DNA from: Enterobacteria phage FL68 Tallahassee/FL/2012
Direction: 5' to 3' (one strand)
Sequence record: KF044309.1
Length of the DNA stretch: 5,486 nt
Shown here: in pieces, positions 1,809-5,486 of the stretch
Position numbering within the stretch: the stretch's first letter is position 1
How the letters are laid out: every line of letters begins with the position of its first letter
The notes under the pieces: model-generated
What the model saw: only the letters and a program-made list of their open reading frames with translations
Told to the model about the DNA's origin: nothing
Database searches by the model: none
Position numbers and translations under genes: made by a program

Positions 1809-1974
1809 CGCTCTCGACGAGGAAAAATACCTAAATATGCTAGGTGCTCTCCTCAAGGACTGGTTCCGTTACGAAGAACATTTCGTACATGGTAAACAAT
1901 CAATGCTTGACTTATTAAATGAACGTGGACTATTATCCACATCAACAACCAACCCAAAAGGAAATACAAAATGA
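1720..1974 (+). CDS. C: Protein C (ssDNA synthesis and packaging switch protein)
   Basis: 84-aa product [21 protein letters not shown]..., collinear with phiX174 gpC ([45 protein letters not shown]). ATG 1720 overlaps the A stop TGA (ATGA). The track's 1702 start is a GTG upstream extension with no support. Confidence 0.9.
1907..1936 (+). promoter_or_regulatory. Candidate sigma70 promoter pD inside gene C: -35 TTGACT at 1907-1912, 18-nt spacer, -10 TATTAT at 1931-1936
   Basis: Near-consensus hexamers with good spacing, about 35 nt upstream of the D start. The homologous phiX174 region (TTGACA ... TACTAT) is the known pD promoter. The AAGGA Shine-Dalgarno for D at 1958-1962 lies downstream of the predicted start. 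Confidence 0.55.
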
Positions 1975-2545: not shown

Positions 2546-3829
2546 ATGTCTAACGTTCAAACTTCCGCTGACCGTATTCCTAACGACCTTTCTCACCTCG
2601 TCTTCGAGGCTGGCAAAATCGGTCGTTTAAAAACTATCTCTTGGACTCCAGTTGTCGCTGGCGACTCATTTGAAACTGAAATGGTAGGCGCTATTCGCCT
2701 TTCCCCACTTCGTCGTGGCCTTGCCGTCGACTCTCGCGTGGATATTTTCTCCTTCTACATCCCGCATCGTCATATCTATGGTCAACAATGGATTGACTTT
2801 ATTAAAGCTGGTGTTAATGCTACTCCGCTGGCTCCTGTTACCTGCTCCTCTGGCTGGGACTCTGCTGCCTATCTTGGCACTATTCCATCATCTACACTCA
2901 AGGTTCCTAAATTCTTACATCAAGGATACCTGAATATTTACAATAACTACTTCAAACCGCCGTGGGATACTGACCTCACTTACGCTAACCCATCTAACAT
3001 GCCTGAACAGGATTATAAATGGGGTGTTCGTGTCGCTAACTTAAAATCTATCTGGACCGCTCCTCTGCCTCCTAACTCTAAAATATCAGAGACTATGACC
3101 ACTGGCGCTACGTCTATTGATATTATGGGCCTGCAAGCTGCTTATGCTAAATTGCATACCCAACAAGAACGTGACTACTTCATGACTCGCTACCGCGATA
3201 TTATGAAAGACTTCGGCGGACACACCTCCTACGATGGTGATAACCGCCCTCTGCTGCTTATGCGCTCTGAATTCTGGGCCTCTGGCTATGACGTCGACGG
3301 TACTGACCAATCTTCATTAGGTCAGTTCTCTGGTCGCGTCCAACAGACATTCAATCACAAAGTACCTCGCTTCTATGTACCTGAACACGGCGTCATTATG
3401 ACTCTCGCTGTTACTCGCTTCCCTCCTACTCATGAAATGGAGATGCACTATCTTGTCGGCAAAGAATCTTTAACTTATACCGACATCGCTTGCGACCCTG
3501 CTCTTATGGCTAACTTGCCTCCGCGCGAAGTATCCCTTAAGGAATTCTTCCACTCTTCGCCGGACTCCGCTAAGTTCAAAATCGCCGAAGGTCAATGGTA
3601 CCGCACGCAGCCTGACCGTGTCGCATACCCTTATAACGCTCTTGATGGCTTCCCGTTCTATTCTGAACTGCCATCTACTGACTTAAAACAACGTGTCTTA
3701 GTTAATACTGATAACTACGATGAAATCTTCCAGTCTATGCAACTCGCACACTGGAATATGCAAACCAAATTTAACACTACTGTCTATAGACACATGCCTA
3801 CGACTCGTGATTCAATCATGACGTCATAA
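2546..3829 (+). CDS. F: Major capsid protein F
   Basis: 427-aa product, collinear with the phiX174 and G4 F proteins as recalled (MSN(I/V)QT, GDSFE, LRLSPLRRGLA, GYLNIYNNYFK, IDIMGLQAAYA, QERDYFM, SGYDVDGTDQ, SLGQFSGRVQQT, KFKIAEGQWYR, LPTTRDSIMTS C-terminus); same length as phiX174 F. AAGGA Shine-Dalgarno at 2535-2539. Confidence 0.97.
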   Translation: MSNVQTSADRIPNDLSHLVFEAGKIGRLKTISWTPVVAGDSFETEMVGAIRLSPLRRGLAVDSRVDIFSFYIPHRHIYGQQWIDFIKAGVNATPLAPVTCSSGWDSAAYLGTIPSSTLKVPKFLHQGYLNIYNNYFKPPWDTDLTYANPSNMPEQDYKWGVRVANLKSIWTAPLPPNSKISETMTTGATSIDIMGLQAAYAKLHTQQERDYFMTRYRDIMKDFGGHTSYDGDNRPLLLMRSEFWASGYDVDGTDQSSLGQFSGRVQQTFNHKVPRFYVPEHGVIMTLAVTRFPPTHEMEMHYLVGKESLTYTDIACDPALMANLPPREVSLKEFFHSSPDSAKFKIAEGQWYRTQPDRVAYPYNALDGFPFYSELPSTDLKQRVLVNTDNYDEIFQSMQLAHWNMQTKFNTTVYRHMPTTRDSIMTS

Positions 3830-3840
3830 AGCCTATAACG

Positions 3841-3878
3841 TGACAGGGGGAAAAATTTTAATTTTTCGCCCCCTGTCA
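3841..3878 (+). other. F-G intergenic long hairpin (10-bp GC-rich stem plus 5-bp A-T extension, with a 2-nt bulge); candidate terminator and/or complementary-strand origin element
   Basis: TGACAGGGGG (3841-3850) pairs with CCCCCTGTCA (3869-3878); AAAAA (3851-3855) pairs with TTTTT (3862-3866); CG at 3867-3868 is bulged. The F-G intergenic region is where phiX174-type phages carry a terminator (TF) and their complementary-strand initiation signals, primase-dependent in G4 and PriA-dependent in phiX174. Function is inferred from position only. Confidence 0.4.
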
Positions 3879-3928: not shown

Positions 3929-4468
3929 ATGTTCCAGAAATTCGTCAAAAAACATAACGCCCCGTTAACTTCTCAAGCTGCTATCTCTAAAGCTGTTACT
4001 CCATCTATGACCGCCGCCCCTCTTGTTACTACACCTCTCGGCGTGTCTTCTACTCAATTATTCTTGGAACTTACAACCACTGCCGCCGCTGGCGGCTTCG
4101 CTTACGCTATCCGCGTAGACAATTCTAACCCTACTGATAATCAGGTCTTCTCCGTCTGTGCTCACATTACATCTGACGTGGACCCTAAATATATTGCGTG
4201 CCTCGTTCGCTTTGAGGTCACTGCTGGTACCACTCCTACCGCTATGCCTCCTGTCTATGATGCTTACCCTATCGCTGGTTACTATGGCGCTGGCTCTTAT
4301 ACTGTTGAAGACTGCGCTACTATTCCTACTCACGCTGTCTCTTCTGGCAACGATGTATATGTCGGCCTTATGCTTTTCTCTCGCATGTGGCCCGTTGCAA
4401 AACTATCCGGTATCGCTTCCCTTAATCAGGTAAACAAGGAAGTAACCGTTCTCCAACCTCTTAAATAA
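3929..4468 (+). CDS. G: Major spike protein G
   Basis: 179-aa product with the phiX174 gpG N-terminus (MFQ.F...HN), the ACLVRFE block and the SLNQV(I/N)KE...LQPLK C-terminus. AAGGA Shine-Dalgarno at 3917-3921. Confidence 0.95.
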
Positions 4469-4478
4469 GGTATTCTCT

Positions 4479-5486
4479 ATGTTTGGTGCAATCGCTGGCG
4501 GTATCGCCTCATCTCTTGCTGGCGGACTCATCAACAAAGCCTTTGGGGGCGGTCAATCCGCCTCCTCTACTGGCGTTCAAGGTGATGTCCTCGCTTCTGA
4601 CAATAACGTAATCGGTGCTAATGATGCTGGTATCAAATCCGCTATTCAAGGCTCTAATCCGCCTAATGGCCAACAAGCTGCTCCCAATGCTATTTCGGGC
4701 GTTCTCGCTGACACTGGCAAAGACGCCCTATCTTCAATCACTGGCGCTGGCGTTAATAAACTTATGGAAAAAATCGGACTATCTAAAACTGCTGCTGATA
4801 AAGGCAAGGACACAAAGGATTATCTTGCTGCTGCATTCCCCGAACTCAACGCGTGGGAACGCGCTGGCTCTGGTGCTTCGTCTGCTGGCATGGTTGACGC
4901 TGGCTTCCAAAACCAAAAAGAATTAACTCGCATGCAGCTTGACAATCAAAAAGAAATCGCTAAGATGCAAAACGACACACAAAAGGATATCGCTGGTATC
5001 CAATCTGTCACATCCCGGCAAAATACTAAGGATGCTGTCTATGCTCAAAACGAGATGCTCGAATATAACCAAAAAGAATCTATGTCACGCGTTGGCTCTA
5101 TTCTCGAAAACACAAGCCTCACCAAACAACAACAAACTTCTGAAATTATGCGGCAGATGCTTACTCAAGCTCAAACCGCAGGTCAACATTTTACAAATGA
5201 CCAAATCAAAGAACTTACACGAAAAGTTGGCGCTGATATTGATTCTGTCCGCGCTAACACTGACCGTACACATGTAGAAACTCAACGTTCAAAACAGGAA
5301 GTTCAAAACTCTCGTTATGCTTCCTCACAAGTCGGTAAAACCGCTAAAGATGTCTCTAATGCAGTTACTGATACAGCTAGTTCTATTGTTGATTATTTTC
5401 GTGGTATTGATAACAAAGTGGCAGACGCTTATAACAACTATTTCAAAGATGGTAAATCCGACGGAATCGGGTCGAACATCAAATAA
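4479..5486 (+). CDS. H: DNA pilot protein H (minor spike, DNA-translocating tube)
   Basis: 335-aa product collinear with phiX174 gpH as recalled ([56 protein letters not shown](R/K)[48 protein letters not shown]). Gly-rich N-terminus and a Gln-rich coiled-coil-like middle. Stop TAA is the last three bases of the window. Confidence 0.95.

Follow-up and report, generated by a model that had tools for sequence, protein, structure and literature searches.

A sigma70-type promoter within gene C of an ID2-clade Gequatrovirus genome as the probable counterpart of the Bullavirinae D promoter

Gene setting and layout of the promoter motif

The stretch of DNA analysed here (5486 bases, hereafter the window) is a complete microvirus genome, which along its whole length shares 99.9% identity with that of FL76 Tallahassee/FL/2012 (KF044310), a phage classified in the Bullavirinae as Gequatrovirus talmos. 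The window falls in the ID2 clade, with 97.7% identity to ID2 and about 85% identity to G4, ID11 and ID18. According to the KF044310 annotation, the genome encodes gene A (62-1723; A* is also annotated), gene B (1276-1638), gene K (1638-1808) and gene C (1720-1974, + strand, also present in the list of open reading frames), followed on the + strand by gene D for the external scaffolding protein (1971-2426), the lysis gene E nested within D (2146-2421), gene J after D (2426-2506, with its stop codon at 2504-2506), gene F (2546-3829), gene G (3929-4468) and gene H (4479-5486). For both FL76 and ID2, the GenBank entry is confined to coding sequences and has no regulatory features.

The first-pass annotation placed a sigma70 promoter at 1907-1936, and both direct reading and a consensus scan returned exactly the elements that it had named on the + strand, namely the -35 hexamer TTGACT (1907-1912, 5/6 consensus matches), the 18-nt spacer TATTAAATGAACGTGGAC (1913-1930) and the -10 hexamer TATTAT (1931-1936, 5/6). 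The combined motif has 10/12 consensus matches without a TG extended -10, and the consensus scan yielded no alternative spacer register here. The whole motif lies in the last third of gene C, with the -35 hexamer overlying codons L63-D64-L65 (cTT GAC Tta) and the -10 hexamer overlying codons L71-L72-S73 (cTA TTA Tcc). The start codon of D (1971), the first gene downstream, is located 35 nt past the last T of the -10 hexamer, with 34 bases between them, and the KF044310 annotation thus bears out the spacing that had been proposed, as well as the position of the element inside gene C and upstream of D-E-J-F-G-H.

Sigma70 promoters of E. coli consist of a -35 element close to TTGACA and a -10 element close to TATAAT, separated by 16-18 nt (optimum 17), and their primary transcripts begin 5-9 nt past the -10 element. 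At the site described here, the TTGA of the -35 hexamer, which covers the four most informative matrix positions, is consensus throughout, the -10 hexamer includes A2 and T6, and the spacer of 18 nt lies within the 16-18 range, one above the optimum.

Chance occurrence and energy scores

The frequency of such motifs was estimated from 2000 dinucleotide-preserving shuffles. The + strand of the window contains 4 sites with at least 10/12 matches, as compared with 0.64 +/- 0.80 in the shuffles, 0.5% of which reach 4, and a site of at least 10/12 whose -10 ends 20-60 nt upstream of 1971 was obtained in 0.45% of the shuffles. Sites of this class also occur on the + strand in the D/E overlap (TTAACA-16-TATTAT, 2233-2260), which is unconserved, its -10 being CATCAT in G4 and phiX174, and inside gene H (TTGACA-16-TAAGAT, 4939-4966), which G4 shares and phiX174 lacks.

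Every 41-mer on both strands was additionally scored with the Kinney/Brewster RNA polymerase energy matrix, taken from the supplement of PMC4958007, which is derived from lac, assumes 18 nt between the hexamer rows and comes with an error given as about 1 kT. With -8.29 kT, the site at 1907 scores best in the genome on either strand, and the runner-up reaches -6.89 kT. A genome-best score of at least the quality of the -8.29 kT site was found in 8.1% of the shuffles, so the score alone is not compelling, and it is position and conservation that make the case.

Conservation among microviruses

The 110 nt upstream of D were aligned for 29 sequences (the window, FL76-like sequences, ID2, ID204, G4, ID11, ID12, ID8, ID52, WA14, ID18, PJNS002, phiX174, alpha3 and IMG/VR loci), and the hexamers were then tabulated together with those of three metagenome contigs. 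G4-like sequences carry TTGACA, an 18-nt spacer and TATTAT (11/12), the lineage of ID2, ID204 and FL76 carries TTGACT-18-TATTAT (10/12), and phiX174 as well as the metagenome virus L028 carry TTGACA-18-TACTAT (10/12). Alpha3-like phages have TTGACG, a 17-nt spacer and TATCTT or TACATT (9/12), while a distant metagenome relative with 69% D identity (L054) has TTGACA-17-TACTTT (9/12). TTGAC is invariant in every Gequatrovirus, Sinsheimervirus and Alphatrevirus sequence examined, and the sixth base of the -35 hexamer is T only in FL76, ID2 and ID204 among these sequences. The 18-nt spacer is common to all G4-like and phiX-like sequences, in contrast to the 17 nt of the alpha3-like phages, and the -10 hexamer TATTAT is identical in all G4-like sequences.

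In phiX174, G4, ID11, ID2 and others, the promoter likewise occupies codons 63-65 and 71-73 of gene C, the -35 hexamer being read as cTT GAC Nnn and the -10 hexamer as nTA nTA Tcn. The phiX-type and G4-type -10 hexamers differ only by a TTA CTA to CTA TTA swap, which is synonymous for Leu-Leu. The agreement with ID11 (Gequatrovirus G4; PMC4958007) encompasses the coordinates (1907-1912 and 1931-1936), the gene C codons, the 18-nt spacer, the -10 hexamer TATTAT and the downstream order D-E-J-F-G-H. The difference lies in the -35 hexamer, which is TTGACA (11/12) in ID11 and G4 but TTGACT (10/12) in the window, ID2 and ID204, where the substitution also alters residue 65 of protein C from Ile to Leu. 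Moreover, D starts at 1971 in the window as compared with 1976 in ID11 and G4, which brings it 5 nt nearer to the promoter, and gene C of the window and the D start share an ATGA overlap, an arrangement found in phiX174 but not in ID11 and G4.

The homology with the D promoter (pD) of phiX174, which the first-pass annotation had proposed, was confirmed by the alignment and the shared gene C codons, and the phiX174 sequence quoted there proved exact (NC_001422, 320-349, TTGACATTTTAAAAGAGCGTGGATTACTAT, with the D start at 390). The promoter of phiX174 (Sinsheimervirus; -35 at 320-325) shares with the window codons 63-65 and 71-73 of gene C, the 18-nt spacer, TTGAC and a -10 hexamer lying on Leu-Leu-Ser, while differing in its hexamers (TTGACA, and TACTAT read as TTA CTA T in place of CTA TTA T), in residue 63 (Val, GTT, vs Leu, CTT, in the window) and in the distance from the -10 hexamer to the D start (41 nt vs 35 nt). 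In the alpha3-like phages (Alphatrevirus), TTGAC likewise occurs at the corresponding position close to the end of gene C, upstream of D, but it is part of TTGACG, the spacer has 17 nt, the weaker -10 (TATCTT/TACATT, 9/12) runs into the gene C stop, and the C-D intergenic leader is longer.

The metagenome scan, which was based on D-protein alignment, mostly recovered copies of the phiX174 spike-in, and the informative new sequences were L027, L028 and L054. In L028 (OBLN01002562.1, 5539 nt; 325-365), PJNS002-like promoter surroundings are combined with phiX174-type hexamers (GTTGACA ... TACTAT), which shows that the two -10 versions interconvert via synonymous Leu codon swaps. An alpha3-like genome, L014 (IMGVR_UViG_2974698926_000001, 6259 nt; region 700-980), contains TTGACG-17-TATATT at the end of gene C and about 200 nt more between promoter and D start than alpha3, which would lengthen the D leader to an unusual extent. 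In the metagenome contig FUFK010037421.1 (327,964 nt; L029-L057), the phiX174 D region is repeated many times, mostly at spacings that are multiples of about 5386 nt, and this repetition almost certainly reflects misassembly of the sequencing spike-in. PhiX174-like sequence is also present in the record of 'Mycolicibacterium phage J1' (MZ417522).

Selection on the hexamers beyond the coding of gene C

Codon usage was compared across 13 distinct Gequatrovirus and Sinsheimervirus sequences in the non-overlapped part of gene C (1810-1947). The third-codon positions inside the hexamers (1908, 1911, 1932 and 1935) are invariant in all four cases, whereas 6/42 of the third positions elsewhere are invariant, two of the six belonging to Met or Trp codons. 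The hypergeometric probability of this distribution, calculated by hand, is 210/163185 (about 0.0013), a value that treats the sites as independent although they are few and the sequences are related.

The hexamer bases are also kept through changes of the encoded residue. Residue 63 is either Leu (CTT) or Val (GTT), and residue 71 is either Leu (CTA or TTA) or Ile (ATA), with the hexamer bases retained in each case. Leu71 and Leu72 are always encoded by NTA, while other Leu codons nearby freely use CTC, CTT, CTG, TTG, CTA and TTA. As judged from these comparisons, the selection acting on the hexamers is in excess of the coding requirement of gene C.

Experimental evidence from relatives and alternative explanations

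In ID11, the annotated feature table lists the D promoter at the same coordinates (D.pro.m35 1907-1912 and D.pro.m10 1931-1936; PMC4958007). During experimental evolution of this phage, exactly one D-promoter mutation was gained in 62/68 wells (91%) and by 81% of isolates (PMC4958007). The mutations (1908T>C, 1909G>A/C/T, 1910A>G, 1911C>T/A, 1932A>G and 1935A>G) are all located within the two hexamers, and several of them are synonymous in gene C (PMC4958007). Assays of the two most frequent ones, 1910A>G and 1911C>T, showed delayed lysis (PMC4958007). Such down-mutations of pD have repeatedly proved adaptive, both under high multiplicity of infection (ID11) and under high temperature (phiX174).

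In phiX174, qPCR showed a significantly lower ratio of D to B transcript for single substitutions at 319, 321, 323 and 324, which lie within or adjacent to the -35 hexamer; this held for three hosts and two temperatures, and two of the four substitutions are synonymous. The reduction of the D transcript was put at 75-80% by the authors of the ID11 study (PMC4958007). A 2026 saturation-mutagenesis preprint on phiX174 reported that synonymous changes in gene C are harmful at codons V63, D64, L71, L72, S73 and S75, and its authors attribute these effects to pD. The description of the element by the first-pass annotation as driving the late operon stands as far as its location upstream of D-E-J-F-G-H is concerned, but it overstates the role of the promoter if phiX174 is taken as a guide, in which every pD-transcribed gene is also present on pB transcripts, pD raises the transcriptional current about 2-fold according to RNA-seq, and pD transcription weakens at partial terminators that follow J, F, G and H.

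The motif is very probably the D promoter, a simple unregulated sigma70 promoter within gene C. The identification given by the first-pass annotation is regarded as correct on the grounds of its geometry, its orthology with ID11 and phiX174, its conservation, its rank as the top energy-matrix site of the genome and the 0.45% shuffle rate. In phages of the phiX174/G4 type, this promoter is used by the host RNA polymerase and raises transcription of the scaffolding, lysis, capsid and spike genes. The element is thus an already known one, the pD of the Bullavirinae, which merely lacks annotation in the GenBank record, while its promoter activity, start site, transcript extents and phenotypic role in this phage are what we infer by functional transfer from phages that are 70-85% identical in the promoter stretch.

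Two other accounts of the motif were weighed against this identification. Since the entire motif is embedded in conserved coding sequence, the hexamers might be a by-product of gene C coding combined with chance, the genes D to H being expressed by read-through from pB and pA with little or no initiation at the site. Such an account would be in keeping with the coverage of all pD genes by pB transcripts in phiX174 and with the genome-wide energy score, which by itself reaches only P = 0.08. It would also accommodate an older study, as summarized in a later source, in which the signal of cloned phiX174 pD fragments with long flanks (90 bp context) was undetectable, a result implying that the activity of pD out of context is inconsistent. 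Set against this are the invariant synonymous positions of the hexamers among variable neighbours and the persistence of their bases through amino-acid replacements. The same account is opposed by the harm done by synonymous hexamer changes in phiX174 and their selection in ID11 with a lysis phenotype, by the lowered D transcript of phiX174 mutants altered in or beside the -35 hexamer, and by the RNA-seq step-up at pD. A by-product of coding is therefore considered very improbable.

It is also conceivable that a different register or a neighbouring site is used, such as a -35 element at 1889 paired with TATTAA (1913-1918), or a homologue of the btss49 site that has been proposed for phiX174, at the 5' end of gene C. 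By the energy matrix, the 1889 site indeed ranks second in the genome (-6.89 kT), and Logel and Jaschke observed that the rise of transcription in phiX174 begins upstream of pD. However, the 1889 site is 1.4 kT weaker than the site at 1907, its -10 is unconserved (TACTGA in both G4 and ID11), and the mutations selected in ID11 map to 1907-1912 and 1931-1936, which leaves the use of another site extremely improbable and the motif at 1907-1936 as the preferred position of pD.

Strength relative to phiX174 pD and the TTGACT variant

The -10 hexamer of the window is nearer to consensus than that of phiX174 (TATTAT, 5/6, vs TACTAT, 4/6), as the first-pass annotation had noted, and the annotation went on to suggest stronger late transcription. 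A real promoter that exceeds phiX174 pD through its better -10, raising the expression of D to H, would be consistent with the energy scores of -8.29 kT for the window, -8.09 kT for G4/ID11 and -7.94 kT for phiX174, as well as with the cost of +0.48 kT that the matrix assigns to T1933C in the window background. The suggestion is not sustained by the remaining comparisons. The -35 hexamer of the window loses one match (TTGACT, 5/6, vs TTGACA, 6/6), T1912A being worth -0.34 kT in the same background, so that both promoters total 10/12; the G4/ID11 promoters reach 11/12, and TATTAT is the usual -10 throughout the G4 clade. The gap between the window and phiX174 amounts to 0.35 kT, which corresponds to a predicted difference of about 1.4-fold and is below the matrix error of about 1 kT, and the predicted advantage arises mostly from spacer and flank terms and less from the hexamers.

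Moreover, the same matrix was reported by the ID11 authors to give near-zero effects for 1910A>G (+0.17 kT) and 1911C>T (-0.10 kT), which are the best experimentally supported pD down-mutations and are thus mispredicted by it (PMC4958007). Relative strength is therefore not callable from sequence, since the gap is below the model error and known down-mutations are mispredicted. The repeated adaptive value of pD down-mutations also argues that a stronger pD is not the expected direction of selection, and a promoter stronger than that of phiX174 appears unlikely.

The TTGACT hexamer is the sole lineage-specific detail of the promoter and was not previously described. Its sixth base differs from that of every other clade, and it could somewhat alter the activity of the promoter. 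The substitution (A1912T, I65L in protein C) sits in the hexamer in which laboratory evolution of ID11 and phiX174 fixes lysis-altering down-mutations, and it might be a naturally fixed change that slightly readjusts D/E expression and the timing of lysis in the ID2/ID204/FL76 lineage, as opposed to a neutral or protein-driven one, a proposal which is nevertheless speculative and rather improbable.

Other promoters and terminators

The beginning of the window contains a pA-like promoter on the + strand (TTGACA-18-TATCAT, 11/12; 4-33), adjoined by a T_H-like hairpin on the same strand (GCCTCC-N8-GGAGGC followed by TTTCTT; 34-53), which was the sole match of the terminator scan and aligns with the pA-T_H region of phiX174, where the same promoter-then-terminator arrangement is found. 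The longest gene A open reading frame starts at ATG 32, inside the pA-like -10, while the GenBank gene A starts at ATG 62. A homologue of the pB promoter is located inside gene A (TTGCAA, 1064-1069, and TACTCT, 1088-1093, separated by 18 nt); with 8/12 matches it is below the scan threshold, and it aligns with TTGCAA-18-TACAGT of phiX174, upstream of the annotated start at 4899. The coordinates of the pB homologue are identical to those of B.pro in the ID11 feature table (1064-1069 and 1088-1093), which also lists A.pro at 4-8 and 26-32 (PMC4958007). The RefSeq record of phiX174 gives start sites for pA (3962) and pB (4899) only. Published work on a codon-constrained promoter concerns pB and not pD.

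Hairpins were recognized after J, F and H, of which only the one after H (34-53) was flagged by the scan. Just past the J stop, the sequence AGGGGC-TTCG-GCCCCT followed by CTATTT (2513-2528, + strand) was identified by reading of the sequence and was not flagged by the terminator scan of the window; it is the probable T_J partial terminator at which the shortest pD transcripts would end. In the ID11 feature table, a J terminator is listed after gene J (2565-2578 in ID11 coordinates; PMC4958007). After gene G, neither sequence reading nor the terminator scan recognized a terminator. Between F and G lies a long hairpin with an inner A/T stem, TGACAGGGGG ... CCCCCTGTCA (3841-3878), which is not followed by a T-run. 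The F-G intergenic region of G4 harbours the complementary-strand origin and primer site, and the hairpin of the window may be related to such an origin, instead of or besides serving as a T_F terminator.

Proposed transcription from pD

In the double-stranded replicative form, the E. coli RNA polymerase holoenzyme would recognize the two hexamers and is predicted to start transcription near 1943-1945, 7-9 nt past the -10 hexamer. The start of phiX174 pD, which we take to be G358, 9 nt after T349, is homologous to A1945 of the window. The predicted leader (1945-1970) would be short, A/C-rich and unstructured, and it would carry the Shine-Dalgarno sequence of gene D, read from the sequence as AAGGAA (1958-1963, + strand) 8-13 nt before the start codon. 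The ribosome-binding site of D in ID11 is annotated at an equivalent distance from the start codon (PMC4958007).

No features suggestive of regulation were detected around the promoter. The predicted stability of the RNA from 1944-2020 does not exceed that of shuffles (z = 0.00), the single-strand DNA fold of 1890-1960 does not go beyond shuffles (z = -1.14), no operator-like inverted repeats are present around the promoter, and the Rfam scan of the whole window returned no family at gathering score. The sole direct repeat around the promoter, the 8-mer AAATGAAC at 1917 and 1969, is probably due to chance. The absence of inverted repeats and of DNA or RNA structure is consistent with an unregulated promoter.

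Transcription from pD would proceed through D/E/J and then F, G and H with progressive attenuation at partial terminators, and both pD and pB transcripts would end at the T_H-like hairpin (34-53). Initiation at pD would add to read-through from pB and pA farther upstream, and the additional mRNA of the D region would fit the demand for scaffolding protein D; the phiX174 authors have proposed that a strong D promoter meets this high demand. In relatives, pD helps to set the level of lysis protein E and, in turn, the timing of lysis.

Concluding remarks

Marking pD at 1907-1936 would complete the regulatory maps of FL76 and ID2, as would marking pB (1064-1093) and pA/T_H (4-53), although the importance of the finding is slight beyond correct annotation. 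The natural TTGACT variant lends itself to comparison with those pD mutations, selected in the laboratory, that adjust when lysis occurs. The element also offers a clean example of a promoter embedded in coding sequence, in which recognition by RNA polymerase dictates which synonymous Leu, Asp and Val codons are used.
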